DNA of 59,728 nucleotides, counting the filler. It is 7 parts of 7 records of this genome, joined end to end, with 100 filler letters (N's around TTAATTAATTAA, not from the genome) between each part and the next. Parts side by side here need not be neighbours in the genome. Positions count along the whole stretch, not along the records: positions 21,471 to 29,713 come from SRR2962707_3035; 6 more parts are not named here. One strand, written 5' to 3'. The notes beneath the pieces were generated by a model. That model had not been told where the DNA came from. It did no database searches and saw nothing but the letters and a program-made list of their open reading frames with translations. The position numbers and the translations under genes are program-made. The first letter of the stretch is position 1, and each line of letters opens with the position of its first letter. Positions 17,280-37,830 of the stretch are shown piece by piece.

Positions 17280-17354
17280 CGCACGTACCTCCATTGATCC
17301 TCCCTCGCGGGAGGTTAGGCTGAACAAAAAATCGGGACGCTAGCTACCGGCTTT

Positions 17355-17958: not shown

Positions 17959-20220
17959 ATGAATCCGACACCTGCGTTCCGCAGACTTTCCGCGATACTG
18001 CCCGGTCTAGTGCTGGTGTTGGCGCTCGCCGTGTCGATCTACAACCCGCAAGGAACGGGCGTCTTCCTGCAGGACCGCGTGTTCGACCTCTATCAGCACA
18101 TCCTGCCGCGCGAACCCGGCCCCCTCGGCACCAACGCCATCTATATCGACATCGACGCGGAAACCGCGAAGACCTACGGCGCCTGGCCTTGGCCGCGCAA
18201 ACGGCTGGACGACCTCGTGGAGCGCGTGCGCGATGCAGGCGCGAGCGCCGTCGTGATCGACATGCCGCTTGCCGAACCCGACCCGACATCGGCGAAGGAA
18301 CTCGTCAGGCTGTGGTCGCCCTTCCCCGCCGCCGGCAACTTCGCCGGGCTCGGGCAGGCACTGGCGCAGCTTCCCGACCATGAGCGCGAACTGACCGCGC
18401 TGCTCGCCTCGACCAATTCCGTCGTCTCCTTCGTGCCCGGCAAAACCGACTACAGCGGCAAGAACGAGCCGATGCGCAAGGCCGTGATCGCCCCGGAAGG
18501 CGGCGATCCGCGTCATCATATGGAGAGTCAGGACACATGGCGCCCGACGCTGCGCCTTTTCGAGGCGGCGGCGAAAGGCAACGGCGCGACGCTGCCCGCC
18601 GGCACGCGCGGCAGCACCGTTCGCGGCCTGCCGATGCTGGTCGACCTCGACGGCACGCTCTATCCCTCGAACGTGCTGGAGGCGCTGCGCGTCTCGGCCG
18701 GAGGCAGCGGCTACCTCGCACAGGTGACCGCGCCCGAAAACGGCTTTTCCTTTGAAATCGAACCCGGCATCGAGCGCGTCGTCATCGAGGGCACGTCCTT
18801 CGCGGCGCGCACGCTGACGAACGGCGACCTCCGCCTTTACTTCGGCGACGAGACGACACGCCGCAGCGTGCCCGCCGGACACATTCTCGCAGGCACCGCC
18901 AATCTCGCCGCACTGAACCAGCGCATCGCCGTGATCGGCGTGTCGGCCAACGGCTCCGACCGGCTCTACAACACGCCCATCGGCATCCAGATGCCATCCG
19001 GCGCCGTCGCCGCCAATGCCATCGACCAGATCGCCAACGGGCAGTTCCTGCTGCGTCCGGGCTGGGTGCCGGCGGCGGAACAGATTTTCATTCTCGTGGC
19101 CGGACTGATTGTCATTCTCGTCGTGCGCCGCTTCCGCTCGCGCTGGGGCCTGACGCTGACGCTGCTCTTGGCCGCAGGCGCATGCTACGGCTCGTGGTGG
19201 GCATTCGAGACCTATCGCTGGCTGGTCGACCCGGCGCTCGGCAGCGTGACGCTGTTCGCCGCCGCGATCACCTGCGCGCTGATGACACGGCTGCACACGG
19301 AAGACGAAATCCGCTTCGTGGAAACGCAGTTCGGCCGCCGCCTGCCATCGGCCGGTCTTGCGAAGGTGAAAGCCAATCCGCGCATGATCCATGGCGAGGG
19401 ACAGTTGCGCGACGTGACGTCCGCCGTCGCGGGGCTGCGCGGCTTCAACATCATTTCCGACCGCTATCTCGAAGACCCGACGGCCTATGCCGACATTTTG
19501 AATCGCTTCTTCTCGCCGATGACGAAGATTGTGCTCGACCGCAACGGCATGGTCGACCGGACAGTCGGCGACGCGCTTTATGCGGTGTGGAACGCGCCGC
19601 TCGACGCGGGCGACCATGCGTCCAAGGGCTGCGATGCGGCGCTGCGCATGGTGGAGAACCTGGAAGCGCTCAACGAATTCCTGGAGGAAGACGCGCGCCG
19701 CCAGCACCTGAGCCATGTGCCGCTGAGCCTTTCCATCGGCGTCGACACGGGCACCGCCATTGCGGGCAACATGGGCGCGATCCAGCGTTTTGACTATGGC
19801 GTGCTGGGCGAGCCAGTGAGCTTCGCGGCCTACTTGCAGAAGAACGCGCGCCATTATGGCCCCGCCATCATCGTCGGCGAAGGCACGCAGCGCGCCGTGG
19901 GCGACCGCTATGCGCTGCTGGAAATCGACCTCGTTTCGACACCGCGCCACCCCGAAGGCCGCCGCGTCTATGCGCTGCTCGGCGACCCGATCATGCGCGC
20001 CAACCCGAAATTTCGCGCGCTGCAGGAAGCGCACATGCTGATCTTCTCCGCCTATCGCAACCAGCGCTGGGCGGAGGCGCGCGCCGCCATTGCCGAATGC
20101 CGGAAACTCAATGGCGCGATCCCGACGCTTTACGATTTCTACGAGGCGCGGATCAGCCAATATGAGGCGAACCCGCCGGGCGAGCACTGGAACGGGGCCT
20201 TCTTTGCGGGCAGAATCTGA
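17959..20220 (+). CDS. CHASE2 + class III nucleotide cyclase-like protein (catalytically degenerate)
   Basis: CHASE2 (IDID, GAWPWPR), three TM helices, cyclase fold (VGDA, WNAP, IGVDTG, GNMG, RFDY) and TPR-like tail. Confidence 0.9.
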   Translation: MNPTPAFRRLSAILPGLVLVLALAVSIYNPQGTGVFLQDRVFDLYQHILPREPGPLGTNAIYIDIDAETAKTYGAWPWPRKRLDDLVERVRDAGASAVVIDMPLAEPDPTSAKELVRLWSPFPAAGNFAGLGQALAQLPDHERELTALLASTNSVVSFVPGKTDYSGKNEPMRKAVIAPEGGDPRHHMESQDTWRPTLRLFEAAAKGNGATLPAGTRGSTVRGLPMLVDLDGTLYPSNVLEALRVSAGGSGYLAQVTAPENGFSFEIEPGIERVVIEGTSFAARTLTNGDLRLYFGDETTRRSVPAGHILAGTANLAALNQRIAVIGVSANGSDRLYNTPIGIQMPSGAVAANAIDQIANGQFLLRPGWVPAAEQIFILVAGLIVILVVRRFRSRWGLTLTLLLAAGACYGSWWAFETYRWLVDPALGSVTLFAAAITCALMTRLHTEDEIRFVETQFGRRLPSAGLAKVKANPRMIHGEGQLRDVTSAVAGLRGFNIISDRYLEDPTAYADILNRFFSPMTKIVLDRNGMVDRTVGDALYAVWNAPLDAGDHASKGCDAALRMVENLEALNEFLEEDARRQHLSHVPLSLSIGVDTGTAIAGNMGAIQRFDYGVLGEPVSFAAYLQKNARHYGPAIIVGEGTQRAVGDRYALLEIDLVSTPRHPEGRRVYALLGDPIMRANPKFRALQEAHMLIFSAYRNQRWAEARAAIAECRKLNGAIPTLYDFYEARISQYEANPPGEHWNGAFFAGRI

Positions 20221-20333
20221 GCCGGAGCGGGCCCAGTCCCGTTTTGGGGCTTGGAGACAGCGCACACAAAAGCCATCATCGCGCGCGAGTTTCCAGACTG
20301 CCTTGAAGCCCGAGACCCCCGAGCCCCCTGCCC

Positions 20334-21320
20334 ATGCGCGAAATCACCGTTGAAGCCCAATCATGGCCCATCGCTGGAGCCTTCACGATTTCGCGCGGGG
20401 CAAAGACCGAAGCGCGCGTCGTCGTCGCGACCGTGAGCGAGGACGGCCTGACGGGACGCGGTGAATGCGTGCCCTATCAGCGCTACGGCGAAACCGAGAA
20501 AGACACGATTGCCGCGATCAAGGCGCTTCAGCCCGCGCTGACCGACGGCCTGACACGCGAAGAGCTGCAGCGCGCCATGCCGCGCGGCGCGGCGCGCAAC
20601 GCGCTCGATTGCGCGATGTGGGACCTGGAGGCGAAACGCGCCGGGCGGCCCGCCTGGGAACTGGCCGGGCTCGCAAAGCCGCGCGCGCTGACCACTGCCT
20701 ATACGCTGAGCCTCGGCTCGCCGGACGCGATGCGCGAGGCGGCGGCGGCGGCAGCGGAACGGCCTCTCCTGAAACTGAAGCTCGGCCATGGCGGCGACGA
20801 GGACATTGCGCGCGTGGAAGCGGTGCGCGGCGGCGCGCCACGCTCGGCGCTGATCGTCGATGCGAATGAGGGCTGGAAGGCCGAAGACGTGCTGCCGCTG
20901 GCGCGGGAACTGGCGCGGCTCGGCGTTTCGCTGATCGAACAGCCGGTGCCCGCCAAGGACGACGAGGTGCTGCGCGGGATCGAAAGCCCAGTGCCGCTCT
21001 GCGCCGACGAAAGCGCGCATGGGCTCGAAGGCATGAAGCGGCTTGTCGGGCTTTACGACTTCATCAATGTGAAACTCGACAAGACGGGCGGCTTCACCGA
21101 AGCGCTCTCCGTCGTCCGCTGCGCGAAGGCGCGCAAGCTGCGCGTGATGGTGGGCTGCATGGTCGCGACCTCGCTCGCCATGGCGCCCGCCATGCTGATC
21201 GCGCAACAGGCGGACTATGTCGACCTCGACGGACCGCTGCTGCTCGCGGAGGACCGGAAGCCGGCGCTGCGCTACGAGGGCAGCCTCGTTTATCCGCCGG
21301 AAGCGGAGCTGTGGGGTTAG
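20334..21320 (+). CDS. dgcA: N-acetyl-D-Glu racemase / L-Ala-D/L-Glu epimerase (enolase superfamily)
   Basis: FTISRG, KLKLG, DANEGW, EQP, ADES, KLDKTGG, GCM and DLDG motifs. Confidence 0.85.
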   Translation: MREITVEAQSWPIAGAFTISRGAKTEARVVVATVSEDGLTGRGECVPYQRYGETEKDTIAAIKALQPALTDGLTREELQRAMPRGAARNALDCAMWDLEAKRAGRPAWELAGLAKPRALTTAYTLSLGSPDAMREAAAAAAERPLLKLKLGHGGDEDIARVEAVRGGAPRSALIVDANEGWKAEDVLPLARELARLGVSLIEQPVPAKDDEVLRGIESPVPLCADESAHGLEGMKRLVGLYDFINVKLDKTGGFTEALSVVRCAKARKLRVMVGCMVATSLAMAPAMLIAQQADYVDLDGPLLLAEDRKPALRYEGSLVYPPEAELWG

Positions 21321-21342
21321 TTTTTGCCCGCGCCCATTTTAA

Positions 21343-21370
21343 CGTCATGACCCGGCTTGTCCGGGTCATC
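21343..21370. repeat. Alphaproteobacterial REP-like palindrome at contig end
   Basis: cGTCATGACCCGG-CTTGT-CCGGGTCATC, matching the GTCATGxCCGGxCTTGxCCGGxCATC REP pattern. Confidence 0.7.
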
Positions 21371-21470
21371 NNNNNNNNNNNNNNNNNNNNNNNNNNNNNN
21401 NNNNNNNNNNNNNNTTAATTAATTAANNNNNNNNNNNNNNNNNNNNNNNNNNNNNNNNNNNNNNNNNNNN
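21371..21470. other. Artificial contig linker
   Basis: N-run + TTAATTAATTAA + N-run. Confidence 0.98.
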
Positions 21471-21508
21471 GGCTGGCTTGCTGGCTGGCTTGCTGGCTGG
21501 TTGGCTGG
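21471..21508. repeat. (GGCT/TGCT)n microsatellite at contig start
   Basis: ggctggcttgctggctggcttgctggctggttggctgg. Confidence 0.8.
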
Positions 21509-21581
21509 CGGGCCTTCTTTCTGTCCGGAACTGGTCGTTGGTTCTTGACTCTGTTGTGGCGGTGGATCTTTCGCAACCACC

Positions 21582-24500
21582 ATGATTGGGCACAATAAGA
21601 CCGTCGTTCGCGACGTGGAGATCGTCATGGAAGGCCCTCTCATGAAGGCGCCAAAGCAAAAGCAGAGGTCGAGCGGGCAGTACTCTGTGGGCATTCGCTC
21701 TGCACTGCGGCAGCGCTGGTTCACGCTGGATGCTGCCGGGCACTTTGATTATTACACGGACGTGTCCCAAAAGCAACACAAAGGCCTTGTGACGATTGCG
21801 TCCAATTCCACCGTGCGCATGCTCTCCAGGAAAGAAGCGGACTCGGGCAAAGCCTTTCTTGTGGACAGCTCGGAATCGGGAATCATTGTCATGGAGGCGG
21901 CGACCACGGAGCTGGCTTCGTCTTGGGTGCAGGCAATCGAATCAGTTATCGCAGGCTTGCAGGCGGGAGGGGCCGGAGGAAAGGAAGCAGAGGTGGCCGC
22001 GGAAGCTCTGGCAGAGCAAGAGGCCGAGCTGCGCCAGCTCAGAAAAGATATTCTGCAACTAAAGGAAGCCCACGAACAAGAACTTGCTGTCCAGGAGCAA
22101 AGACATCGCGATGACAGTTCGGCCACGCTTGAAAAACTCAGTGAGGTGGAGCTGCAGCTGGAGCGCGAGCAGCGCGAGTCGGCTGATAGGCAAGAAGAAC
22201 TTGAACAGACGAAGTCGGAATTGGCGGATGCCACCGCCGCCGCTGAGGAGGCTTCTCGCGAGCTCAACGCCACCAAACAGGAGGTGCAGCTGTTGCGCAG
22301 CGCGCATGGGACATCCGATGACGAAGTGCACGCACTGAACGAGAAGCTGGCCGAGCAAAAGGCTCTAAACGAAGAATTGTTCGTCCTCTTTATTCACGCC
22401 CACTGCATGCCCGTACCGCGAGGCCACCTCCTCGCTGGTGTTTTGAGTCACACTGTGAAGTCTGCGAATGATATTTCACCGAGCTTGTATTTTGAAAATA
22501 ACTAGGTACGAAAAACTGGTGGACGTTCGCGAACAGTTGAGCCTTCGGGGTGATGGAGCTGCCAGTGAGGACGAGCGCGGCGGACAACGCACAGTCGCAG
22601 ACCTTATCGAGCAAATCGACGCTAAGGACCAAGAGGTTCAACGGCTGACAGAATTGCTTGATACGCAAGCCGCGTCTCGGCAGGAGGAGCATGACGCCGC
22701 GTTTGCGGACATGCAACGTGCCCACGAAGAAGAGTTGTCATTTTTGATGGCTCGGCTCGATGAGATGGAAGCTGCCAACGAGGAGGTCGCGAATTTGCAA
22801 AAAGAGGAGCGGACTGAGCTGAAGGGAGAGGTCAACCGGTTGCGGCGCGCCACGTCTGCAGAGTTCCCACATCAACGCTCTCAACGTGCGCTTGGTGCCA
22901 CTGAAGGCATGGGCTCAAGTGCTGGTGGAAGTGACGAGGGTACTCCACCTGAGGATCTTCTTGTTCAGTCACCACAGGGACTGGCTGTACTGCGTGACGT
23001 TGCTGTCGAGCTGCGGTCGCGAACGGGAGCGGTAGGGCAGGAAGGGGAGGCTGAACTGGACAGCAGTGAGAACGCCTCGGCTTTGGGTTCAACAGCGGCG
23101 CGATGCATCGAGGCACTGCTCCGGTGTCGCTTCGAAAACGCAAGCGAAGTGCAATCTGAATTCCGTGCGCTCGCGGACCAGATTAACGAAGGTGCCGCTC
23201 AGATCGCGAAAACAACGCGCCAGCTTGAGACAGCAGAGCAGGCTGTTGTGGCGGCTCGTGAAGCTTCTGAACGTGATACTGCCGAATCTACAGACATGTT
23301 GAGAAAGCTTGAGGCTGCGAAGCAAATCCTGGAGACGCAGGTCAGCGAGTCAAAAGAAGAGTTGCAAAAGGCAATCACTCAAGTGCAGAATTCGGAGAAG
23401 CATGTTGCTGGGCTCGAGGCCCGCAACGAAATGTTGAGGGCGCAAGCAGAGCGCTTGACCATCGAAGGCAGCGAAGTTCGCACGCAGTTGGAAGAGACAC
23501 GGCGTCAGTGTGCAGGGCTTGAAGACGACGTGCGGCGCGCTGAAGAACAACTTGCGGCCGCCCAGCAGCGCGAACAAGCTGCAACTGCCCGTGCCGATAA
23601 AGCTGAGCTGGAAGTGAGCCAAATGCACGAAACGTCTCAACTGGCCAACGAACGTGCTTCCGAAGCCAAGGCACAAAGCCAGGATGCCGAGGCGACCATA
23701 TCCAGTGCCCACGAAAAACTGAAGAAGGCGGTGCAACGGGCAGTCACTGCTAAGAAACTTGCCAATGCCGCGGAGCAGCGTGCCAACGAAGCTGAGCAAC
23801 GTGCCAGTGACGCAGAGCAGCGTGCCAATGACGCGGAGCAACGTGCCAATGAAGCTGAGCAAAGCGCCAGTGACGCAGTACAACGTGCCAGTGATGCAGA
23901 GCAGCAATCCAACAAAGTTGAGCAGCGTGCCAGCGACGCAGAGAAGCGTGCCAGTGATGCCGAGCAGCGTGCCAACAAGGCCGAGCAGCACGCCGGTGAG
24001 GCCGAGCAGCGCGCAAGTGAAAGTGAACAGCGTGCCACCAACGCTGAAAAGCGTGCTGACGGACTTGAAACAGAGCTTGTGGAGCTACGAGAGCGGGTTG
24101 CTTCGCGTGAGGAACAAGTCGCTGAGCTTGAGGGGGCATGCGAGGGCTACAGTGACGAGGTGCAAGAGTTGAACGGGCAGTGCGAACAGTTGGAAGTTGA
24201 AAAGCTGAAAGCGCAGGTGGAGGTGCAGACACTTCGTCAGCGCGTTGCCCAGTTGGAAGAACAAGTGGCTGCTGCGCAGAAAGACGAGTCGGCACCTGAC
24301 ACTGCCCAAGGCTCCGCCACCGGTGTTGAGAAACCCAGTGAGGACGTTCAGGCAGAAGTTGCAAGTGAAACTGACGACGCCACGGACGCCCCAACGGAGG
24401 ACGTTGTCGATGCAGCTCCGTCTGCCTCTGGTGCTGGTGAAAGTGTTGTGGCACTTTTAGAAGAGCAGCTTGAGCGGCAAAAGTCCATCGTCAAAACGCT

Positions 24501-27500
24501 TCGCACCAACTTGCGGAATGCCAAGGATGAAGCCGCGAATGCGCAAGCAGAGTTGGAAGTGTCCCTCACTCAAACCAAAGATGCTCTCAGTGCCCAGGAA
24601 AAAGCAGCTCAACAGGAGTTGCTCCGTGAGCGGCAGGAGGCTGGGGCACGGATGTCAAAGGCAGCTGACCGTGAGAAACAGCTGCAAGCTCGCGTGGCGC
24701 ATCTCGAAGAGGAGGTTGCAGAATTGAAGCTCGCAGTCAGCGCAGCCTCCGACGAGGTGGACCGTGTGAAGCTCGAGGCTCGTGATGCGGTGGCGGCGGA
24801 AGCAGCTGCAGCACAGGCAAGGGAGGCGGCAAAAACCGAGGCTGACGCGTCATCATCGTCGGCGATGGAAGCTGATCTTGCTGAGGCCAAGGAGAAAGCC
24901 AAAACGACGGAGCTGCGCGCATCGGAGCTTCAAAAATCACTTACAGAACAGGCCAAACGTGAAGTCGCCGCTGCACGCGCAGCACACAAAGCCGAAGCGT
25001 CGGCCCTGGCGTCGAGAATCGCAGAAGTGGAGGAACGGCTGGCAGTTGCGCAACAAGAGGCGGCTGATGCCGCAGAGGCCGCAGCGGCAGCATCGGCTGC
25101 CGCAGAAGCTGCTGCGGCGGTAACTCCAGTCAAGGCTGGCCCCAGCGAGGACATAGAGTCACTGTGCCCAACCACCGCGAACCTGAGTCCGGCACAGACT
25201 CAGTCCATTCAACGCCTGCTGGTCAAGTTTCGGCGACTCCAGCGAGAGCGGCACTCCATGGCGTTGGAGTTAAAAAAGGCAAAGGCCGCAGCACGAGCTG
25301 CTACAGCTGCTGCAGCCCGAATGGCCACAGCGTCAGAGGCTGGAAGGATGCAGGGATCTGAAAGTGCCAAGGTATGATGCCGCCTACTTGAGGCTGTCGC
25401 TGCGCAAATCGATCGTGCTTGCGTGGAATGCGTTTGCGTACTGATGGTCCGGTGCTTTTTGGGCCACCAGCTGACTGAGCGTGTTTTTTTTAACCCGACA
25501 ACTTGCAAGGTAAACCAATTGTTGGAGGAGCGGCTGCGGGCGCACGTGCGCAGCAGGGGATACGAGGGTGAGCCTTTGCGGCAGGAGTTGATGGCACCTG
25601 ACAATTCAGTTGCGTTGGTAGTGGATACAGAGGGCGTTGCGACAGCGCTGTCGCTACTCAACAGTGGCCTTTTTCAGGTTTGGTGCTTGGTTCAACCGAC
25701 ATTGGGCACGGTTTCTGAGTGTGAATCCGTAAAGGATACCCAACTGCTCCTGACGTCAGTGCTTGCTTTGCGATTGCGTGCGATTTTTGTGTGAAGATTC
25801 CCCGAGAAATCATGACGCTTGCAGTTTTCTCGGATTTGGACCAGCGGTACCTTGCTGTCCACCTTGACAAGTATGGACGTTGGGTTGGTGGGAGTGAGGT
25901 CGATTGGGCAATAACAGGAACCAAGCGAAAGGTTCTTCTTCGTGGGAAGCCAGGCGATACGGACGCGGGAATTTCCTTTGGCACGTTCTGTTTGCGTTAT
26001 GATGTGGCTGGAAATGATGTGGACCTGCTGCTTACTCATCTTCGTCACGGAATTCTGTGTTCCCCGATGCGTGCAGATCACTCCACGCCCTTGCACCAGC
26101 AATTAACCGCGTCGGTTGACGAAGGCAAACTCTCCCGTTCCACATGGACTTCTCGCATTTTTGCCATTGGAATCCGCAATGTTGACAATTTGCGACACGG
26201 AACTTTGACACTTGAGCAATTTCGGCGTCTTGTTCTTAAGGATGTGACAGTGCCGGTTCAAACCGGGGCAAAGTGGGGCTTTTGCGCTGCAGACTGGAAG
26301 CAAGTGCGACTCGACCCACGACCAACCTGGCGGCACGCTCTCGATTCCACGGAAGCAAAAGGAATATTGGACGGATGGACTGCCGTGGCTGCGCGACAGA
26401 AAGCACTGCTTGATTGGCTGGGGCGTCTCCAGGTTAGTTTGTTGCATTCACTCATGGCAAGTTCACGATGGCAACTCGTCAGTAAGCTAGCCTTTTCGGA
26501 AGGGGTCGGGTGGTTGATCATGCGTCACGTTCTGCTTTGGTGGTGCGACGTGTGTAGATGCATGATATTTTCTCGGCCGGTTTCAGTCCTGGACTACAAC
26601 TACGTGCCTTGGGGCTCCACACAGCGTTTCAAATTGTCGCTGAGCTTGTGGCGTTCGTGCAAACGAGGACGCTTGTGCCCATCAGCGCATTTGTGCGCCT
26701 CCATGCCGAGAACCCTGACGACGTCAGCGACGCCGGCAGCGATGCTGGGAGCAGTCGCGCAGGCCGTGGGGATTCCCAAGACGATGATCTCAGTGACGAT
26801 GGAGAGGGTGACATGACGGCTTTGTTTGACGTGCGGCTGGGTATCAACTGCTGGGAAGAGTATGACCTGTGGCCCTTGTGCCAGGACGCCCAAAAGAAAA
26901 GCCGCGGCGCGGTTCCCACCGCCCCCGCCACGCAAAATTCGTCTGCATCCCCTGCTGCTGGAGCAGATGCTAGCAAAGCTGCTGGGGCAGGAACTATTGC
27001 TGCCATGCACGAAACATCAGCCTCAATGAATATGTGGACTGGGAAAGCTGTCTTGAATATTCTGGAATCGTGGACGGCAGATCCTGGGCGCATTTCTCTT
27101 GTCCATCAATGGATGTCGAAGATCCTGAACGCGCCAGCTGAGCGCATGGTGCGCAAGTCTGCAGCTCGTTTTTTGAAAGGAGCTTTGCGACGGAGGAAAG
27201 CTCCACAAACAACGAAAGCGTATGCTCCCGTGCATCACGGAATCGAGTTACAAAAGATGAAAGCGCGGGTGGCGGCAGAGTTTGTGGCGCGTGTTGTGCC
27301 CCGGTTGGCAAAGGTGCGAACACTGGCAAGCGCATTCCGTTTTTTGTATGCCATCGCCAACATTGTCCGTTCGTCCGTTCCAGCAGTGATGCTGAACGCT
27401 TCCTTTGCTTGCACAGGCCTTGGGGAGTACTGAGCCTGGAGCCTTGCGCTTGTGGATTCGCAAAAGCCGCGACCGACTGGACAACCTTTCGGCTGTGCCC

Positions 27501-27626
27501 GCTCCTGAGCACAGAGTTCAGTTTTTCCGCGAGACTTTTGGAGCGGCGACACTGGAAGATCTCGTGAATGGCGACAACGGCGATGACAGCTTGCTTGTCG
27601 ATATTCGGCTGCGCGCACTTGTTTGA
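21582..27626 (+). CDS. Eukaryotic ~1810-aa PH-domain/coiled-coil protein, 6 exons
   Basis: PH domain (MEGPLMK...RWFTL...KG...SWVQAI). In-frame GT-AG introns at 22379-22505, 25372-25509, 25678-25796, 26433-26557 and 27314-27416 join five downstream ORFs. Kozak-like ACCACCATG start. Confidence 0.75.
23767..24060 (+). repeat. Intragenic 21-nt tandem repeat encoding about 14 heptads AEQRA(N/S)(E/D)
   Basis: Recurrent gagcagcgtgcca units; translated AEQRANE/AEQRASD. Confidence 0.9.
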
Positions 27627-27862
27627 GAATTCGTGGCGAGTGTCGCTTTGTATGTGCACGCTTGTCGGAGAGGTGGAGCATGCCACTCGGTGCCCTGCTT
27701 TTTTTTCTTCAAATAAGTAATTGATCCTTGTGCGCACGCGCAAAAAGTGTTCGGTCATGGTCGTATGCACAGCGGCTTGCAAAAACTTCGTTGTGTTCGG
27801 CGTTCGTTCCACGGGTGCGTATTGGCGCGTTTTAGTTTTTAGATTTTGCCGGCGAAGTACGG

Positions 27863-29713
27863 CTACCAGTTGTTGTTGCCAACTTTTCGTGAGTCCTTCC
27901 TGCGCCGACGATGTTCTTCACGGAGTTGCCGTATGCGTTCTTTCTCGGGTCGTTTCAAGTCATCAAAAAATTCTGCAACAACTTCAGGGCTTTCTTCTTC
28001 CGAATCCTTGATGGGATCGTTGTACACTTGGGCGCCAGCCACTTGCGCTGGTGGAAGGCCTTCTTGTTTGCGGTATCTAAGCAGGTACACAGAACCACCG
28101 TTTCACACACAAAAGCAGGGGGAAATCGTAAACTTGTCGCCACACAAAATGAATCCGGTCGAAACGGGTCAGGGGTGCGTCACGAACATGTTGGTGTCGC
28201 GAAGGCTGTATGAGCAGCCACAATATTCTTGTTTGTAAAAGGAGCGTTCGGCATTCACGCGGTACTTGCGGTCTGTCATTTCCGGAGTCTGCCAATCCCG
28301 CGACCACCACGTGACGCCAGGGTATTTAGCAACGGCAGCAACGCCGGTTCGATTGACCTGTTCTGCATCTTTCCACCGGGAGGTCGCGTTCGTCGTCGTA
28401 ATGTACTGGAGCAGAAGCGAGTTGACACAGACACAAGCCAGCACTGCATCACCACAACTCACAGACAAGCAGAAAATGAAACGAAAGGAAAAACTCGCAA
28501 CTCATACACGAACCTGAAATCCGTGCGTTTGCGCATACTCTGCCGTCTTTTCGAAACGCATGTCAAAGCACATGGTGCATCGATCGCCACGTTCGGGATC
28601 GAATTCCATTCCTTTTGCGCGGGCATACCTTTGAAGCAGCGTGCAACTTTGAACTCAAAAAAAATTGCAGATTGTTGTGTACAGCCCACCAAACCCACGT
28701 ATCCAACCCCTGGGGCGATACGCCTGTAAAGGCTCTGGCACTCACCACTCATCCACATCATAATCCAGGTCGACGAAATCTACACCTAGGAAGTCGGCAA
28801 AGCGCTTGTTCTCCTCCTTTCGAACATCGTACTCTTCACGCGGGTGAATGTTGGGATTGTAAAATAAAATCGTGACATCGTTCCCTTCGCTGAGCATTTG
28901 CTCAATCATTGCCCCACTGCACGGTGCACAACAGGAATGCAGGAGCACTTTTTGATCAGGCTCGATGCGACCTCCTATTGAGATCATGCTTTCGCGACCA
29001 CCTACGACTTCGACAATTTTGCTGCGATTCGACACAGGGTCGCTGACAGTTGCATTCTCGCTCTGGTCTTCGGCGTTTTTGTCCCAGTTGTGGGCGGGTT
29101 CCACAGCAAAAGCGCCAGGGTTGGGCGTGCACTGAGGAACTACGAATACAAGGTCATCGGGCTTCTTCGGAGCCGAAGATGTTGCCGTTTTGACCTGCAC
29201 GCGCGCGAGATCCTCACTGACACCCACAGCCGGGAGATCCTGCAGCCGGCACAGCGCAGCCTGAAAACCTTTCGGAGCAGTATTCACGAACTCCAATAGG
29301 GATGCTGCAGGAAGCTGCGAGTCCTCACAACTGCTTAACAGTGCAAGTGCATTCAAGGTCTGAGCTGCTGAGCTTCCAACGGCAATGACTGGTCGCTGCA
29401 ATCGTACGCTCCGTTTCAGTTCGCGTCGGACGCGTGCGAGTGCTGTTGTATCGTCGAAAGCGTCAGCTGACCTTGCGTTGGGCAGCACCGATATCTTGAC
29501 ACCGCTGCGGCGGAGCTCGTCAATGCTCAGAATGTCGCTGAAGGTGAATTCAGAGTCGACCACGACGTGCGCGTCGCTGGGGAAAAGCCCAGCAGCTGCC
29601 CCGGGCGAATCGAGTGACACCGCTGCCCACACGCCGTCCGTAGCCACGGCATTTGAGAGAGTCTTGAATCGAATTTGATTCGCCAGCGCAGCAGCAGCAG
29701 CAGCAGCAGCAGC
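27863..29713 (-). CDS. queH: Eukaryotic epoxyqueuosine reductase QueH (DUF208) homolog with N-terminal extension, at least 4 exons, 5' truncated
   Basis: [36 protein letters not shown] and [14 protein letters not shown] are reconstituted across GT-AG introns 28629-28745, 28406-28513 and 28077-28187. The frame is open to the contig end. Confidence 0.88.
29686..29713. repeat. (CAG)n microsatellite (poly-Ala in the QueH frame) at contig end
   Basis: Run of cag repeats immediately before the linker. Confidence 0.85.
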
Positions 29714-29813
29714 NNNNNNNNNNNNNNNNNNNNNNNNNNNNNNNNNNNNNNNNNNNNTTAATTAATTAANNNNNNNNNNNNNNNNNNNNNNNNNNNNNNN
29801 NNNNNNNNNNNNN
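29714..29813. other. Artificial contig linker
   Basis: N-run + TTAATTAATTAA + N-run. Confidence 0.98.
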
Positions 29814-32398
29814 TTGCACTGCCGAGCCTACTGCCCCTTGAAGTCTTCCTACCAGTTGGAATTACTTCGTTTGAAGGTGGCATTGGGAGGGGTATTGCTG
29901 TGGCAAAAGGGAGGGGCGAGATGGATCTTCCCGGGAGTGCCGTTGTTGGGAAGGTGCAGCGACGGATATCGCAGTTCAACAGACAGATCTCAAACGAGCG
30001 CTCGGTGCCGTCGTCGGCAGTGAAAACACGCAAGAGGACACCGGCAAAGTTTTTTAAATCCCCGATTCGAATCAAACTTGCCCAGGAAAACTTTTGCTCT
30101 GTGGCCAAAATACAACTCACAGACTCCATGGAACGGCGCTATAAGATCAACTCTTTTTGGGACTGGGTCACTGTTGGCATCTACCTTGCGCTGGGACTCG
30201 CCGGCTTGCAGACGGACGTGTTGTCGATTCACACGCTCTTACGGTCATGTGCGCTGAATGGAATTGATATTACGTGCCACAATCACCTCGACGCTGCGGC
30301 AACTCTTTCTTTGATCCTTATCGCTGTCGTGTGGGTTTTGTCATTTGGTGCCGGGATTGTGAAGCTGTACAATGACAGATTGGTGGAACGAAAGCCCAAA
30401 CAGGTCCCAATGAGCATGTGGAAAACTATTGTTTGGGCTCCATTTGCACTGGGTTTGAGCTTGATTCGTGGCCTCACTGCCAGCATTTGGGTAGCAACTG
30501 GATTCGTTTTGTACATTTCGAAAGCGTGGATGATCGGGCCCGTTCTTGAGATGTGGTTAATTGTTGGTGGTCCAATGGCGCATCTTTACTGGGACACAAA
30601 GCAGCTCGCAGCCACTTCCGCAGATCACATAGTGCTTGCGGTCACATTGGATGAATTCAATCCAAACACAGCAAAACGCGGTAATGAACGAGCATCGCTC
30701 CGTGACGCACAAGTGATGCGCCGCGCACTGAATGCAGAGTTTCGCAGTGTTGGGCGTCCCGAAAAGAAACCGAGAAGGCGCATGACTTCTTCCACCAATT
30801 TTCTGAGTACATTTCTCCACATCACGCCAAGAGTGGACCTTCTCTTTGACGTACGTAGTGCCAGTTTTATTTGAAAGAAGCTGCTTTTTATGCCAAGTAG
30901 AGTGTTTGTTCATCGTTCTCGTTCTGGCGCGCTCAAACTACAATTACAGGTGGCCGCCCTCAACAAGGCCTACACATTGGAATTCTTGCTGCGCAATACG
31001 CCAGTTTTTGTCTTTCAATTACTGTGGAGCGCAGTGAGTCTTGCACGCTCTGTTGCAGAAACTGTGCTTCAGAGCCAGGGCATGCAAATTCCGATTTCGA
31101 CATGGTTTTGGAGCATTGTTCTTTCTGCTACCAACAAGGATGTTCAAGTTTTGGGTGATTTATCGATTGAGGGTTCAAACAGTACTGCGAGCAAAGGAGT
31201 TTGCAGTTTTGTTGGCCTTCATAACGTCAATTCGGACGAGACAGTGGCTCTTGGCGACTGGACAACGTTCATTCTGCCCGTGGTTTCTGGATTATTGTTT
31301 CTGTAAGTTGCTGTGGGGTCCGCTGCCTCTGCATTGGGTGCAAATACGTCAAGTTTTTTTAATTACCAGCGCGATATGTGATTTACTAATGCTCCGTATA
31401 GGTTTAATCTTGGAAGCTATCTCCACATGCATCGGACAGGGTCGTACGCATCAGCTTTTGAAAATATTGCCACTTCGCTTGGAAATGCGCTCCGCACTGC
31501 AAGACAAGTGTTTACCAATATGACGACAACTGAACCGTCAAACACCCGGCCGTCGACACGACGCTGCTCTCATCGAGGAATTAATCGCAAGTCCATGAAA
31601 GTACGATTTGGGCGCATTAATGCTGCACTTGCGGCACAGAAGAAAAGATTCGCTCGTCAAGGCAACAATGTTAGCGTTCAAGCACCGGTTCACCAGTCCT
31701 CAACATCCTCATCCAATAACGTAGCAGCAACGCCTGTGGCAACTCCCAAATTTGCACCTACGCGCTCTGTGAGGGCAGTGGCGCCAGATGCATCGAAGGC
31801 AAAAGCTTACGCCACACCCCCTGCTTTACGGCAGACATTCAGTCGAAAAGCAAGGTCTGAACGGGAACTTCGGCAGCTCGTGGCACAATCTGCAGCGGGA
31901 GCAGCTCAAAACATATCGCCATCCTCTAGCGGCAACGCAAAAGAGTCGCGTCGACCGCCTAAACGATCACGAATTGGGCTTGATGAAATTCAAAAAGTGT
32001 GTCTCATCAAGCGATCACGCGCTGGGACAATCAGCAAGAAGACATCAACAGGTCGACGTCGCAGAACTGTGCAGCATATGGACAACAACACTCTGAACCC
32101 AACAAAGGAAATAAAAAGGAAGGGGGCAACCAGGCGAAAGCGCTCTCGTTTTGAGTCTTTGAGCAAGCGCGTGAATGCAGCAGCAGCTCTTGCGGACGCC
32201 AAGAGTGGGCTTGGTCGAAGGAAAGCAGTTAAAGCACCCTGTTCACCAGATCTTGCAGTGCAAGTTGCGCAAAGGGCGATTGAGCTACGAGCGAAGCGCC
32301 ATCGAATATCAAATACCCCGCTCCGTGCGCAAAACTTAAACCTGCGGCCCGTCGCACTGAATGTCGAACCACAACCTTCGCCAGAAGCCGTTCTGTGA
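29814..32398 (+). CDS. Eukaryotic multi-pass membrane protein with long basic C-terminal tail (5' truncated, at least 3 exons)
   Basis: ORFs 29900, 30890 and 31427 are joined in frame by introns 30851-30949 (gtacgt..ttacag) and 31303-31401 (gtaagt..tactaat..atag); several hydrophobic helices. Confidence 0.65.
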
Positions 32399-32478
32399 GT
32401 GAACACAATTCAGACGACTATAAAACAGGGATTTCCAGCATTATAAATTATTTATTTCCCAGCAGTTTCCTTTCTGGA

Positions 32479-34721
32479 TTAGTATGACCGCGGCAAACCC
32501 AGAACTTTCTCTGCAACGAAACTCAAAATGAGATTTGTCGAGATCGGAGCAATACGATACCTTCATCGAGTTCCAAGCTCCAGTGAGTGTTGCCGCATCA
32601 TCGCAAGCCAACTCGACAGCAGGCAGGCGTACCAAATTTTACTTACAACTTGCTTTCTCGAAACTTCCTTTCAATACCGAAGTCTGACGCAAAAGCATAC
32701 CCACCATGAGTTTGCATGCACCTGCAAAACAAATCAGCAGTCAGCACGCACCACAGATCAATTCCGACAGTGGTGAGACGCTCCACCAATAGCGCAGGAT
32801 CTGTGACAGGAAACATAGCTTGTCGCACGTACATGTCGCCTGCTTTCCATGATGCCTCTGCCGCTAAATACTTGGCCTGAAACGCAGTTCCAACGAACGA
32901 AAGGTAAGCGGCGGCTTGTCTTTTGTGACCTGCAGGGGTACCAATGCATGACGCACCATGTTGGCTTCTGCTCCAGCAGGCTCCCCAGCCTCATATCGGC
33001 GGGCAGCTGCATCAACCATGAGGGCAGCTGCTCGTGTTTGAGCAAAAGCTTCAGCAATCGGAAACTGGATTCCCTGGTTGGCACCAATGGGGCGACTGTA
33101 TACACCAGCACCCATCGAGAAAACGTGTGGCAAAATTAGCTGGTCGCTGCAAATAGTGAGTCCAGAACACAAAACTTGATGCCTGGGAACACGCACCCAA
33201 ATACAACTCGTTCATTGGAGTATTTCACTGCCTGTTCCACAGGCACATGCAACCACAGTCAAAAAGCGAACGGAAACTGCACCGCCAAGTTGTTGCCAAT
33301 GGTTCCTTTACATCATGGACACATATAATACCGCACCTTTTCAATAAAGAAACGAGCATCTCCAATACTTTCGGAGGCAATCAGAGTCCTTTCTGCATTC
33401 ATAGAAGTCAGGATACACTTGAGACCGTCTCCCTCTTCACCAATCATGTTTTCTGCTGGGACGATTACGTTGTCGAAAAAAACCTGATGGTGCCACTCGA
33501 AGCATCAATCAACCGAATCTGGAAGGTGGCTGGAGGGACAATGCGCACTGAAATGCCGATAAAGGTGAAAATGCGCACCTGGGTTGTGGAGTGATTCATC
33601 ATTGTCCGCACTGGTGTAATTTCCATGTGGCCTCCATGAATATTACTTCCATCCTTTCCAATCGTCAAAACAGTTGATCCGAGTTCAGGTTTGCAATTCA
33701 AGTGCTGTCTTATTTCAGGCATTTGGGGCCAAAATTTTACCTTGGTTGTGATGGTACGTTGATGCTTGGCATCCTGCATGTCGACGACAAAGAGGGACAG
33801 AGCCTTTGACCGCCTGCGGTGTTGGGTGAAAGAGAAACAAGGGAATGCATCGTCAGTACCAAGTTTTGTTGAAGCCAGAGCGTGATTTCTGGAAAAATGC
33901 GGACACTCATCAAACACAAATATGCCATGTCACAGTGCAAAATGCAAGCCGACAATTACTAACCCTCCCTTTGTGGCATTCTCTGGGGACGTTCGACAGA
34001 GCAGCAGCATGAGATCTGAGTGCTCAGCTCGCGACGTCCACATTTTCTGACCATTAATACGGTAGTGGGTAGTTTCTCCGTTGGCGTTCTTTGCGCAAGC
34101 AGTGGCCTGAAAACCAAGCAGGTAGCGAAAAATCAATGGAGACAGCATGGGTTCGATTGGCAGCGAAAATGGAATGTCATTTACCGTTGTCCTGAGCGAG
34201 AGCGTGTCTGTGCCCGAGTCCGGCTCGGAGACGCCGAACGCCTGCAGTCGAATCTCGCCACTGGCAATGCCTGGAAGCCAGCGCTGCTTTTGCTCTTCGG
34301 TACCGTGGTACAGCAAGGTGCCCATTGTGTACATTTGGGCGTGTGCCGCACCACCATTACCGCCACTTGCATGTATCTCCTCAAGCACTGCGCAGGCAGC
34401 GGACAACGGCAGCCCACTTCCGCCGTACTCTTCTGGGACCAAAATCGACAGGTAGCCCGCGTCCTGCAGCGCGCGGACAAACTTCGAAGGGTATTCGCGG
34501 CTGGAGTCAACACTGTCCCAGTAACTGTGCGGAAATTCGGCACACAGTGCCCTCACTGCTTCGCGGATCTCCGGATAAGCATTCCCCCCGACCGTCACAC
34601 CGTGCGGGAGTACTGAACTGAAAGATCTCACGGACTGGCTGGCAGGCCAACAACTTGCCTTCCTCGGCATGAGGCATCCAGGGAGCTGCGCTGCTCGGCG
34701 AATGCAGCGCGAAAACATCAT
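32479..34721 (-). CDS. Acyl-CoA dehydrogenase with mitochondrial presequence, multi-exon
   Basis: PEEYGGSG, SEPDSGTD, INGQKMWTS, IGANQGIQFPIA, AKYLA, QTHGG and YRIAPISTNLILSFVAEKVLGLPRSY* across introns; N-terminus MFSRCIRR...RSFSS. Confidence 0.9.
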
Positions 34722-34959
34722 CGTCGTGCGCTGCTGCCAAGAAAGATGGTGTTTGAGATGCCCACTGCACCGTCGCTACAACTTTTTCAAAAATTCTCGC
34801 TCCACGTTGTGCTTGACGAAAGAGAGGCTGAAAAACCGTCCACGCAGGAATCAGAAGCTTTCTGAGATCGTCGCCGCACCACCTCACGCACTCCAGTCAC
34901 CGAGAGTTCTCTCCAGGGTCCACCAAGGGAAACTCCAACCACGCAGACAGCCAGAGAGT

Positions 34960-35016
34960 CTCGAGAGAGCATCTCGAGAGAGCATCTCGAGAGAGAGCAT
35001 CTCGAGAGAGAGCATC
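34960..35016. repeat. Tandem 13-15 nt repeat CTCGAGAGAG(AG)CAT x4
   Basis: Read directly in the sequence upstream of the ACAD gene. Confidence 0.85.
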
Positions 35017-35630
35017 AGGAGTATGGAGAGAGAGTATCGAGAGTAGGAGTGAGCGAGTGCGCCAGCCAAACTTGAGAGCCAACTGACTTTTTTTTGCAGC
35101 TTTCGAACTTTTGCACTTTTGCAGCTTTCCCAGCTTTCCAGAAGCTTTTTTATGCATTTCGTTAATACAGCTAAAACGGTACATGTAACATTCACAAAAA
35201 TTGGTGTTTTATCAAACTTCTAAATTTGCAAGAATCAAGAACCGACGCAAACCTCCGATGTTGAAATCCGTTAAAATACTCATGAACAGCAGGAACCTAC
35301 CCTCAAATTCGTTGTACTTTTTCGAAATTACCTTGACATGGCTTTCAACCCTCCAGTGTGTGGTCACCTGACAAAAAATAATCTGAAGCTTGTGGTAGAA
35401 AGTCGCTAATAAAGCTAAATAGAAAAGCTAGTAGAACCTAAAAACGACGTTTTTAATGTTTGTTGATGGTCTGGCTCGTTCCACCGGTCAAAATGCAGTG
35501 CGTTCGCTTTCGAAGCGTGATAACTGGTTAAAATAGCTAAAATGAAACAGAAAGACGGGTATAATTGCACGATTTAAATGGAATTACACGTCAACGCGGT
35601 CGTTACACCTTGCAGCGGAGAGCGTTGTGG

Positions 35631-35659
35631 TGTGAGTGAGTGAGTGAGCGAGTGAGTGA
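35631..35659. repeat. (GTGA)n microsatellite at contig end
   Basis: tgtgagtgagtgagtgagcgagtgagtga. Confidence 0.8.
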
Positions 35660-35759
35660 NNNNNNNNNNNNNNNNNNNNNNNNNNNNNNNNNNNNNNNNN
35701 NNNTTAATTAATTAANNNNNNNNNNNNNNNNNNNNNNNNNNNNNNNNNNNNNNNNNNNN
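35660..35759. other. Artificial contig linker
   Basis: N-run + TTAATTAATTAA + N-run. Confidence 0.98.
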
Positions 35760-36543
35760 GTTTGACCATGATCATGTCTGCGCCTTCGGCAATATCTTGC
35801 TCGGCTTCGCGCAGCGCTTCATCGCTGTTGGCAGGGTCAATGTAATAGGTTTTTTTATCGCCTTTGAGCAGGCCCAAAGTGCCGATCGCATCGCGGTAAG
35901 GACCATAAAACGCAGACGCAAATTTCGTTGCGTAAGACATGATTGCGATATCTTGATAACCGCCTTCATCGAGCGCATCACGAATAGCGCCAATGCGGCC
36001 ATCCATCATATCGGACGGCGATATTATATCAGCGCCAGCCGCCGCTTGCATAACCGCAGCGCGCGCAAGGATATCGACGGTTTCATCATTGACGATTACA
36101 TCGCCGCGTAAAACACCGTCATGGCCGTGGCTGGTGAATGGATCAAGCGCGACATCGGTCATGACACCAATATCGGGAACTGCTTTTTTAATGGCCGCTG
36201 TGGCTAGATTTATAATGTTATCTTCGTCCAAAATATGTGAGCCGGTTACATCTTTCTTTGACGCTTCAATATGGGCAAACGGTGCAAGAAGCCCAATACC
36301 GAGGTCATGCGCCTCTTTTGCCGCTTCAACGGCAACATCAACACTCATGCGGAATACGCCAGGCATCGCATCAATCGGTTGTTTTTGGTTTTTGCCGTCA
36401 ACGAGGAAAATCGGCCAGATTAAATCATTGGTGGTGAGTTGATTTTCTTGAACAAGACGCCGTGACCAATCTGCCTTGCGCATGCGTCGCAAACGGCGCC
36501 CATTCGTAATTTCGTCAACGCTTCGCATGTGATTTCCTTGCAT
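35760..36543 (-). CDS. hemB: Porphobilinogen synthase, Cys-less (non-Zn) type, 3' truncated
   Basis: DVALDPFTSHGHDG, PSDMMDGRI, FYGPYRDA and GADMIMVK motifs. Confidence 0.95.
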
Positions 36544-36687
36544 TAATATGAAACTGTTGCATGAAGTATCACGCCCCTTTGCACTTCGCCAAGACTTGCT
36601 ATACCAAAAACACGGCCAGCGCTAAAAAGGCGCACCTGCGCACAAAGCGTTATAATTTGGGTCAGCAAAGTTGGATTTTGACAAAAA

Positions 36688-37107
36688 ATGCTTAGTCAAA
36701 TGCACGTTTCAAAACAACCTCCATCGCGTTTGCGAGACATATATGTGTATTTTTTACGCATTATGGCGGCCGTTTGTTTCGTTTCGGGATTAATTTATTG
36801 GGCCCAATTAATCGGAATTACCGGCGAAGGGCTGTTTCGATTTGACCTACTCGATACTAAATGGCGCGTTGTTTCGGCAACATTAGCTGTGCTTTTGCCT
36901 GCTGCGGCACTCGGTCTTTGGCTTACCCAGTCATGGGGAATTGTCCTATGGATATGCGCAATGTGCATAGAAATAGGAGCCTTTGGCATATGGGCAAACC
37001 TCTTTGTAGCTAAGCCCATGTTGGTGCTTGGGCACCTGATATCTATTGCATTTATTTGTTTGATTTCGGCCGCGCGTTATTTAGAGCGATATCGTCATGG
37101 TTCCTAA
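36688..37107 (+). CDS. DUF6163-like membrane protein
   Basis: Four TM helices with GLIYW, AALGLW and WGIVLW motifs; conserved position between hemB and ldtR in Rhizobiales. Confidence 0.7.
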   Translation: MLSQMHVSKQPPSRLRDIYVYFLRIMAAVCFVSGLIYWAQLIGITGEGLFRFDLLDTKWRVVSATLAVLLPAAALGLWLTQSWGIVLWICAMCIEIGAFGIWANLFVAKPMLVLGHLISIAFICLISAARYLERYRHGS

Positions 37108-37160
37108 TTTATGAACGCTGGCATAGCAATTCATTAACGACGAAAACCAAAGACCCCTTG

Positions 37161-37176
37161 GTAAGGCCTTATTAAC
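37161..37176 (+). promoter_or_regulatory. Putative CtrA site upstream of ldtR
   Basis: GTAA-N7-TTAAC, one mismatch from TTAA-N7-TTAAC. Confidence 0.45.
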
Positions 37177-37264
37177 GCTGGCTTTTAATTCGAATTTTAT
37201 ACGTGTTCGATAGATTGACCTCACAAGCCGAGAAAAAACATCGGCGACCTACAGTGAGGCGAAA

Positions 37265-37777
37265 ATGTTAAACCAAGCAAATCTAGTCGGCGCTACGCGT
37301 CCGGCAACTGAAGAGAATTCTATTCGTAAAGTCTACCTTGAGTCATTGCAGCTCGTTGAGCGTTTACACCACCGTTTGCAAGATGTCGTCAAGGATGAGT
37401 TTGATCGCAAAAATCGCAGTGATGTAAATGCTGTTCAAGCTTTGTTGCTGTTCAATATCGGCGACAGCGAGATGACAGCCGGTGAACTGCGTTCACGTGG
37501 TTATTATTTAGGCTCAAACGTATCATACAACATCAAGAAACTTGTTGAATTGGGCTTTATCAACCACGAGCGTTCACGCGCAGACCGCCGTTCAGTACGC
37601 ATTAGCTTGACTGAGACAGGTATGGATGTCGCGAAGACTGTTTCAGCCCTCTATGATCGTCATGTCGAATCGATCGAAGCTGTTGGCGGCATCGGCCAAG
37701 CCGAGTTTCAAACAATGATCCGTTCAATGCAGCGTTTGGACCGTTTCTGGAACGACACAATCATGTACCGCCTCTAA
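37265..37777 (+). CDS. ldtR: MarR-family regulator LdtR
   Basis: VERLH, NAVQALLLFNIG, AGELRSRGYYLGSNVSYN and DRRSVR motifs. Confidence 0.88.
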   Translation: MLNQANLVGATRPATEENSIRKVYLESLQLVERLHHRLQDVVKDEFDRKNRSDVNAVQALLLFNIGDSEMTAGELRSRGYYLGSNVSYNIKKLVELGFINHERSRADRRSVRISLTETGMDVAKTVSALYDRHVESIEAVGGIGQAEFQTMIRSMQRLDRFWNDTIMYRL

Positions 37778-37796
37778 AGGCCGTTCACCTAAAATT

Positions 37797-37830
37797 AAAA
37801 ACGCACTGCAAGCAATTGCAGTGCGTTTTT
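37797..37830. terminator. Bidirectional intrinsic terminator
   Basis: aaaaacgcactgcaa-gcaa-ttgcagtgcgttttt. Confidence 0.85.

Follow-up and report, generated by a model that had tools for sequence, protein, structure and literature searches.

Why would a protist carry an enzyme that completes the bacterial synthesis of queuosine (Q)? In the textbook view, eukaryotes only salvage queuine. QueH is an iron-sulfur (Fe-S) epoxyqueuosine reductase that converts epoxyqueuosine (oQ) at position 34 to Q on tRNAs with GUN anticodons. The DNA analysed here (the window) is a stretch of 59,728 nucleotides (nt), filler included, in which seven unplaced contigs are joined end to end; on the minus strand of its third contig (21471-29713, from SRR2962707_3035), at positions 27863-29713, lies a gene for a QueH protein. 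We use WIN as the label for both this gene and its protein. WIN is real, expressed and not unique. Our analysis places it within a large eukaryotic group of QueH proteins, many of which are fused to QueA, and we consider that WIN most likely, although our confidence in this is moderate, performs the last step of a bacterial-type queuosine pathway in an organelle, probably the mitochondrion.

WIN is a spliced and transcribed gene with an intact QueH core

WIN matches the QueH family (PF02677) in order on three stop-to-stop open reading frame (ORF) pieces, with 76.2, 38.1 and 56.7 bits (the gathering threshold being 23.5). The three pieces cover positions 1-68, 69-106 and 109-174 of the family model, i.e. 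1-174 of 175, which is far beyond chance. With exon/intron junctions set by alignment to homologues, the gene has four exons and three GT-AG introns (Table 1), and 27863 is the final base of its TAG stop codon. When joined, the four exons give 1515 nt with a sole stop at the end, encoding 504 amino acids (aa), and the spliced protein aligns without gaps at every junction to seven eukaryote-type homologues, one of which is an MMETSP transcript. Note that 29713 is the last base ahead of an artificial linker, and hence the contig edge; the gene is truncated at its 5' end there, within a (GCT)n run.

The motifs HSCCAPC, NPNIHP, RCTMC, SRWK and YCGC, with the CCxxC, RCxxC and YCGC cysteine clusters, are all there in the spliced protein, and of the 63 columns with a conservation of at least 95% across 138 other QueH cores, WIN retains all 63. 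The exons of WIN align with the solved QueH of Thermotoga maritima (PDB 7lc5, 7lc7 and 9deu), such that the third Cys of HSCCAPC falls on residue 13 of the T. maritima protein, which is the site of a deposited D13N mutant. (Exon 2 alone gave no match when compared to PDB sequences.) WIN has in common with this bacterial enzyme the fold family and the motifs CCxxC, NPNIHP, ERGxRCxxCFDxR, SRWK and YCGC. It differs from bacterial QueH in being encoded by a spliced nuclear gene, in having an N-terminal extension of ~330 aa (as judged by comparison with its closest relative, P0001) and a 79-aa tail that ends in NNW, and in having a different, eukaryote-type stretch and DWQT where bacterial QueHs have the signatures SSLGISRWKN and NWRK. 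P0001 comes from a different organism, where it is a genomic ORF that terminates at the same intron, and is identical to WIN at 67 of 68 positions in the QueH part and at 176 of 255 positions upstream. The QueH half of the lineage of WIN and P0001 appears, from these alignments, to be under tight constraint.

The locus is present in two sequencing runs from the same coded organism: X1, a DNA run, and X2, which we take to be an RNA run. One X2 contig (record 13, 1963 nt) joins 28076>28188, 28405>28514 and 28626>28744 (cut +2). These joints have CT..AC ends on the plus strand and match the three predicted introns exactly, and the same contig is contiguous across 28744-29678, within exon 1. X1 contigs read through the WIN introns, and none of the X2 joints is seen in X1; the exact skipping of GT-AG introns argues that X2 is indeed RNA. 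Altogether the QueH contig has eight junctions that are spliced in X2, three of them in WIN and five in neighbouring genes. In addition, a marine-metagenome run, X3, contains a 262-nt contig over 28002-28263 that has no differing letters and includes intron 3. The contig that bears WIN is eukaryotic, and WIN is a nuclear and transcribed gene of a marine protist.

These findings bear on an earlier note on this DNA, which had claimed that three in-frame GT-AG introns restore a complete QueH core, that the Cys motifs HSCCAPC, RCTMC and YCGC together with NPNIHP and SRWK are intact in it, and that a second intron-rich gene on the contig argues against bacterial contamination. The joined coding sequence (CDS) without internal stop, the near-complete PF02677 coverage and the motifs of the spliced protein confirm the first two of these claims, and the transcript support that the note had asked for is provided by the X2 contig that skips all three introns, which the X1 DNA retains. 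The argument from the second gene holds for 21471-29713, where X2 has the five further joints, and for the same interval the exclusion of contamination is borne out by splicing, by the gap-free alignment of the spliced protein to homologues and by a third-position GC content that matches that of the neighbouring spliced gene. The note was silent on the contig linkers, on the 5' truncation, on the ~255 codons ahead of the QueH core and on the 79 aa past YCGC.

X1 also contains minority length variants at this locus, two of them in intron 3 (at 28104 and 28118, with 2 nt and 1 nt missing, at a depth of about 23-29 out of ~130) and one, a 1-nt deletion, at 29270 in exon 1 (depth 11.6 out of 105). 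None of the three was seen in X2, and they may represent allelic variation or assembly noise. The X2 contig with the spliced QueH message, for its part, extends to 27415, which is the start of the last exon of a convergent gene on the plus strand (joint 27311>27415), and this reflects either overlapping 3' ends of transcripts or a merger made by the assembler. The contig does not, therefore, define where the 3' untranslated region of QueH ends.

WIN belongs to a eukaryotic group of QueH proteins that includes many QueA-QueH fusions

A search with exon 1 gave 1929 proteins at E<=0.001 among 8000 candidates scored, and the best 120 matches are of two kinds. Those of the bacterial type are about 215-250 aa long and contain SSLGISRWKN; those of the eukaryote type have a signature of their own and a long tail, often with a QueA domain (PF02547) ahead, and include MMETSP and EukProt transcripts as well as proteins of Heterosigma akashiwo and Polarella glacialis. 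When GTDB species genomes were scanned, the best prokaryote QueHs were 44-59% identical to the eukaryote-type member P0005, and the top-ranked ones came from Rickettsiales, Legionella, Neisseria and Parachlamydiaceae. A tree of 139 rows, built on 183 columns, has a branch with a support of 100 that sets WIN and the other eukaryote-type rows (44 in all) apart, and 0 of the 39 GTDB prokaryote loci used fall inside this group. The grouping agrees with three features that lie outside the columns of the tree: the presence of the tail, fusion to QueA, and source names that are explicitly eukaryotic in six rows.

When longer homologues (567-2000 aa) were searched for, all 26 of the 26 matches proved to be fusions of PF02547 and PF02677 (QueA plus QueH) from algae and protists. 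Named examples are those of Aureococcus anophagefferens (annotated as 'queuosine biosynthesis protein'), Pelagomonas calceolata ('Epoxyqueuosine reductase'), Diacronema lutheri and Polarella glacialis, and that of a Pyrodinium transcript. A second tree, of 70 rows and rooted on 8 bacterial rows, groups WIN with P0002, P0241 and P0246 with a support of 99, the other three being intact fusions, and this group is nested within one of 42 rows that has 28 fusions. Identity between the QueH core of WIN and those of eukaryotic fusion proteins is 76-79%, with a maximum of 79% for P0002, P0241 and P0246. WIN is best described, on this placement, as a member of an old and widespread eukaryotic QueH family with bacterial-type ancestry. 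The trees do not allow the bacterial donor to be named.

The earlier note had regarded WIN as a horizontally acquired and domesticated QueH. Bacterial-type ancestry stands, given prokaryote proteins that are 44-59% identical, whereas an acquisition private to this protist is at odds with the eukaryote-only clade and the fusions; the phylogeny that the note had put forward as a check places WIN inside that clade. The note had also named, as a finding that would refute it, homologs being already characterised and widespread in eukaryotes. Half of this applies: homologs are indeed widespread (26 of 26 longer matches are fusions, some of them annotated automatically); a characterisation of them was not found.

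Eukaryotic QueH proteins are already in public databases under automatic names and are a large and barely studied group. The abstract of the paper that reported the discovery of queH (Zallot et al. 2017) is said to cite gene fusions as evidence, and QueA-DUF208 fusions are possibly mentioned in that paper. In the literature searched, we found no paper on QueH or QueA-QueH fusions in eukaryotes, with the possible exception of the queH discovery paper and of the supplementary trees of PMC12301720 (Fig. S5), where such fusions may be included with the homologues of QueA; a 2025 survey of eukaryotic Q makes no mention of QueA, QueG or QueH, and two reviews give no detail on the metal ligands of QueH.

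Some of the QueA-QueH proteins are giants. P0244, P0251, P0252, P0253, P0255 and P0259 (974-1811 aa), which include proteins of Polarella and Pyrodinium, have FolD (PF00763/PF02882), pterin-4a-carbinolamine dehydratase (PF01329) and sometimes PF09084 fused to QueA and QueH, such that folate/pterin and queuosine enzymes lie within one reading frame.

The region upstream of the QueH core is probably a decayed QueA module

In a phmmer search of 1.84 billion representatives, P0001 was the sole relative of the ~250 aa that precede the QueH core of WIN; a third member with this type of upstream region, P0078, is more distant. The ESM Atlas gave no usable match to the upstream region of WIN. We found, however, residual similarity to QueA when profiles were compared with hhalign. 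Against the QueA parts of 8 fusions the probability was 70% and the score 39.9 (the maximum in 30 shuffles being 22.8), and against those of 19 full-length eukaryotic proteins the probability was 68%, with an E value of 4.8e-5 and a score of 42.5 over 64 columns (maximum in 40 shuffles, 22.7); a comparison with bacterial and fusion QueA combined gave 22%. The islands that align run collinear with QueA; the clearest one, found in both the 68% and the 70% run, sets RPVIAVGSS of WIN on the VGTT strand of QueA.

Seven motifs of QueA are each found in 16-18 of 18 full fusions; 0 of the 7 are found in WIN, P0001 or P0078. Moreover, the upstream part is 334 aa long in P0001, as against a median of 499.5 in the fusions. 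Because of the residual profile similarity, and because of the position of WIN in the tree among QueA-QueH fusions, we think there is a good chance that the upstream region is a decayed QueA module. Irrespective of where it came from, the region does not make up a working QueA. WIN resembles the eukaryotic fusions in that its core groups with theirs, the tail and NW end are common to both and the upstream region is collinear, and it differs from them in that their QueA is intact. WIN is not a functional fusion, since its upstream module has no QueA motifs and no match to PF02547 and is much shorter.

Eukaryote-type QueH proteins have a long tail that usually ends in tryptophan

In WIN, 79 aa follow YCGC. 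The tail sequence in exon 4 has an acidic and a basic stretch and terminates in NNW; it matches no Pfam family and aligns with the tails of eukaryote-type QueHs, in which the median length past YCGC is 79 aa as opposed to 34.5 aa in bacteria. A terminal Trp is present in 33 of 44 eukaryote-type rows and in 0 of 56 bacterial-type rows. The 33 ends are NNW (23), ENW (3), DNW (3), SNW (2), GNW (1) and ATW (1), so that 32 of them are of the form x-N-W, and 18 of the 20 full QueA-QueH fusions have an NW end.

A QueH sub-clade made up of P0025, P0032, P0033, P0043 and P0086 (support 98-99), together with P0063, has no terminal Trp and instead has a basic end. These six proteins have QQYCGC in place of QEYCGC, and four of them (P0025, P0043, P0063 and P0086) have a start that we classed as presequence-like. 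The sub-clade may be a purely mitochondrial branch.

A proposed bacterial-type queuosine pathway in an organelle

We propose that WIN descends from a QueA-QueH fusion gene, of a kind found widely among stramenopile, haptophyte and dinoflagellate lineages, and that in WIN, P0001 and probably P0078 the QueA half became smaller and none of its catalytic motifs survived, with the QueH half still constrained. In the pathway that we envisage, a bacterial-like TGT would insert preQ1, QueA would make oQ and QueH would make Q, on tRNAs that would be organellar and probably mitochondrial. The QueA activity would come from a separate gene. The last of these steps is the one that we favour, with moderate confidence, as the function of WIN, and it is from sequence that we infer its catalysis, its localisation and the source of its oQ substrate.

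What we know of localisation comes from relatives, because the N-terminus of WIN is cut by the contig end. The first 30 residues of P0001 contain 6 R/K and 1 D/E, and its N-terminus has no hydrophobic signal-peptide core. A basic start without a hydrophobic core is more in keeping with a mitochondrial presequence than with the bipartite leader that directs proteins to the plastids of complex algae. A presequence-like extension is also found directly before QueA in 8 of the 16 full fusions that have the start motif of QueA, including that of Pelagomonas and an Aureococcus-like protein.

There is a precedent for such a route. A mitochondrial pathway that consists of BL-TGT, YhhQ, QueA and QueG was reported in 2025 for Chloropicon and red algae and is, in the words of its authors, the first of its kind (PMC12301720). 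Like the pathway proposed here, it has bacterial-type late Q enzymes that are encoded in a eukaryotic nucleus, and many of the fusions, as well as a relative of WIN, begin with a presequence-like stretch; it differs in its use of QueG, with which QueH shares no homology, and the word 'QueH' occurs 0 times in the article (PMC12301720). The assertion of the earlier note that eukaryotes do not need to reduce epoxyqueuosine is out of date in view of that mitochondrial TGT/QueA/QueG route.

Several points weigh against the organellar pathway or against the steps that lead to it. Of 40 eukaryote-type proteins without the QueA motif, 27 have no presequence-like start, and the assessment of presequences is a crude count of charges. 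The conserved C-terminal Trp resembles a signal of clients of cytosolic iron-sulfur assembly (CIA) and would point to the cytosol. Provision of QueA in trans is an assumption, and that X2 is RNA is a guess. Both trees were built by a 'quick' method, and the eukaryote-type label was set by a motif that lies within the aligned columns. As to the QueA relic, the upstream ~250 aa match no Pfam family, PF02547 included, at E<=10, and the homology falls below the usual level of confidence: an initial hhalign comparison with 14 partial fusions (-M 50) gave a probability of 0.25%, and one with 5 bacterial QueAs alone gave 0.6%, the best alignment being on the same segment. An AlphaFold2 model of exon 1 from a 3-sequence alignment was too poor to test the relic (mean pLDDT 49.8); with this model Foldseek retrieved QueH only (7lc7, E 0.044) and no QueA, which is uninformative either way.

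Alternative explanations

The loss of all seven QueA motifs from the fused module, set against a QueH core in which all 63 conserved columns are intact and 67 of 68 residues agree with P0001, raises the question of where oQ comes from: QueH was kept after the fused QueA decayed, and therefore another source of oQ is needed. QueA might be truly lost, with QueH alone acting on a salvaged substrate and reducing oQ that derives from salvaged epoxyqueuine or oQ nucleotides of bacterial prey. The decayed module lends a little weight to the idea of epoxyqueuine from prey, the boldest one in the earlier note. A stand-alone queA may, however, exist elsewhere in the genome, the three nearest relatives of WIN in the tree retain an intact QueA, and we know of no eukaryotic TGT or QNG1 that handles the epoxide; we consider true loss of QueA unlikely. 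An alternative that we rate no higher concerns the site rather than the substrate, namely that QueH and the QueA-QueH fusions act on cytosolic tRNAs and are matured by the CIA machinery, for which x-N-W-COOH would be a Trp-terminated targeting signal. The published C-terminal consensus of CIA clients is [LIM]-[DES]-[WF] (PMC10245660), and binding is attributed chiefly to the terminal Trp and its carboxylate, the residue at -1 being largely dispensable in motifs that end in Trp (bioRxiv 10.64898/2026.04.06.716496). Like the clients that carry this targeting complex recognition (TCR) tripeptide, WIN and its clade are Fe-S enzymes with an almost invariant terminal Trp, and theirs stands on a eukaryote-specific tail; also in favour are the W ends found in 33 of 44 eukaryote-type rows (32 x-N-W) and in none of the 56 bacterial-type rows and the NW ends of 18 of 20 full fusions, and the residues ahead of the end vary, which a terminal signal would lead one to expect. 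But N at -1 and N/E/D/S/G at -2 fall outside the published consensus, such that we see a resemblance only. Presequence-like starts do tend to be commoner in proteins without a terminal W (5 of 8, as compared to 4 of 17 with W; table 4/5/13/3), but this does not reach significance (Fisher p=0.087), in rows that lack phylogenetic independence, and in 7 full-length fusions a basic, acid-poor N-terminal extension directly before QueA is paired with an NW end. The rescue by QueH of prey-derived epoxyqueuosine or epoxyqueuine, in place of service in a de novo-type pathway, to which the x-N-W of the clade might add a cytosolic signal of the CIA type, would amount to an undescribed step of eukaryotic queuosine salvage, as would a CIA-type cytosolic QueH, and we regard it too as improbable.

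A recent transfer of a bacterial queH that is private to this lineage, followed by domestication, is considerably less probable than either of these. The QueH family is bacterial, and among the closest prokaryote sequences are some from bacteria that associate intracellularly with protists (Rickettsiales, Legionella and Parachlamydiaceae). WIN, however, is far closer to the eukaryotic fusions (76-79% identity) than prokaryotes are to P0005 (44-59%), and it sits on a single eukaryote-only branch whose tail is common to the clade; a private transfer is contradicted by this clade with its support of 100, by the common tail, by the 26 of 26 fusions and by the fusion group with its support of 99. 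Finally, we give next to no credence to bacterial contamination or an assembly artefact. It is true that genes for REC-PAS-GGDEF-EAL and HDOD kinase proteins, for YkuD and, uninterrupted, for SHMT and RibD lie within the window. These bacterial-looking genes are on other contigs, beyond linkers, the QueH contig has eight junctions in X2, and QueH cannot be read unless three spliceosomal-type introns are removed. The linkers, the gap-free junctions in the alignment to homologues and the splicing in X2 refute this explanation.

If the organellar pathway is correct, WIN and its relatives would constitute a second eukaryotic route to Q of the bacterial type, one that is based on QueH, usually fused to QueA, and that occurs in pelagophytes, haptophytes, dinoflagellates and unnamed protists. 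WIN also offers a testable system, in that the gene is spliced and expressed, the protein is a natural 'QueA-dead, QueH-alive' variant and the terminal Trp is conserved. The system would be informative about the tRNA pools that carry the modification, about whether it is preQ1, oQ or queuine that marine protists obtain from bacteria and about how clusters are delivered to an imported bacterial Fe-S enzyme.

Composition of the window and genes near WIN

The seven contigs of the window occupy 1-9387, 9488-21370, 21471-29713, 29814-35659, 35760-45705, 45806-54028 and 54129-59728, and are separated by six linkers of the form N44-TTAATTAATTAA-N44, which have stop codons in six frames (9388-9487, 21371-21470, 29714-29813, 35660-35759, 45706-45805 and 54029-54128). 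Several contigs other than that of QueH contain long uninterrupted genes of bacterial type. These are at least the first, with the REC-PAS-GGDEF-EAL and HDOD kinase genes, the second, with a CHASE2-cyclase gene and a GC content of 0.66, and the fifth, with the genes for YkuD transpeptidase, SHMT and RibD; the seventh looks eukaryotic and encodes kinesin and MFAP1. The named proteins nearest to this kinesin, from Acrasis, Aureococcus and Phytophthora, are only 35-40% identical to it, and the seventh contig may come from an organism other than that of the QueH contig. Because at least three contigs hold such genes, the assembly is a mixture of a protist and associated bacteria, and since the window chains separate contigs, several of them bacterial-looking, arguments from a shared contig are limited to 21471-29713. 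A search of the window with Rfam and a tRNA scan gave a sole match, a tRNA-Gln(CTG) at 45804-45876 (minus strand), which is at the start of the sixth contig against the linker and not on the QueH contig.

Table 1 Features of the QueH contig and of the linker that follows it
Feature	Position	Strand	Remarks
Exon 1 of WIN, 5'-partial, 968 nt	28746..29713	-	ORF and junctions; ends on TG of a split Trp codon
Upstream region, ~254 aa, probable decayed QueA module	28950..29713	-	poly-Ala start from (GCT)n at about 29687-29713
QueH core, first third (HSCCAPC, NPNIHP)	28746..28949	-	PF02677 1-68, E 4.3e-21
Intron 1, 117 nt, GTGAGT..AG	28629..28745	-	skipped by X2 record 13; retained by X1 DNA contig
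Exon 2, 115 nt	28514..28628	-	PF02677 69-106, E 2.1e-9
Intron 2, 108 nt, GTTCGT..AG	28406..28513	-	junctions set by homologues; skipped by X2 record 13
Exon 3, 218 nt	28188..28405	-	PF02677 109-174, E 4.3e-15
Intron 3, 111 nt, GTTCGT..AG	28077..28187	-	skipped by X2; spanned by X3 contig
Exon 4, 214 nt including TAG stop (27863-27865)	27863..28076	-	eukaryote-specific tail; terminal N-N-W codons 27866-27874
Artificial linker N44-TTAATTAATTAA-N44	29714..29813	.	terminates QueH contig; DNA past linker unrelated
PH-domain/coiled-coil gene, spliced	21549-25377	+	intron near 22379-22505; ORF 22459-25377; PH domain E 6e-5
Gene without known family, spliced	about 25725-27626	+	four introns; convergent with QueH

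The five X2 joints in the two neighbouring genes are 22378>22506, 25675>25795, 25979>26076, 26430>26556 and 27311>27415, and four of them are GT..AG. The GC content at third codon positions (GC3) is 0.552 in the QueH CDS as compared to 0.548 in the neighbouring spliced gene. As printed, the joint 25979>26076 (25980-26076, 96 nt) is flanked by GG..CA, and a permitted shift of 1 base turns these ends into GC..AG, which would represent a non-canonical splice site in the plus-strand neighbour. The PH-domain/coiled-coil protein contains, at 23700-24100 on the plus strand, near-identical heptad-like repeats of the form 'AEQRA(S/N)DAEQRA...'.

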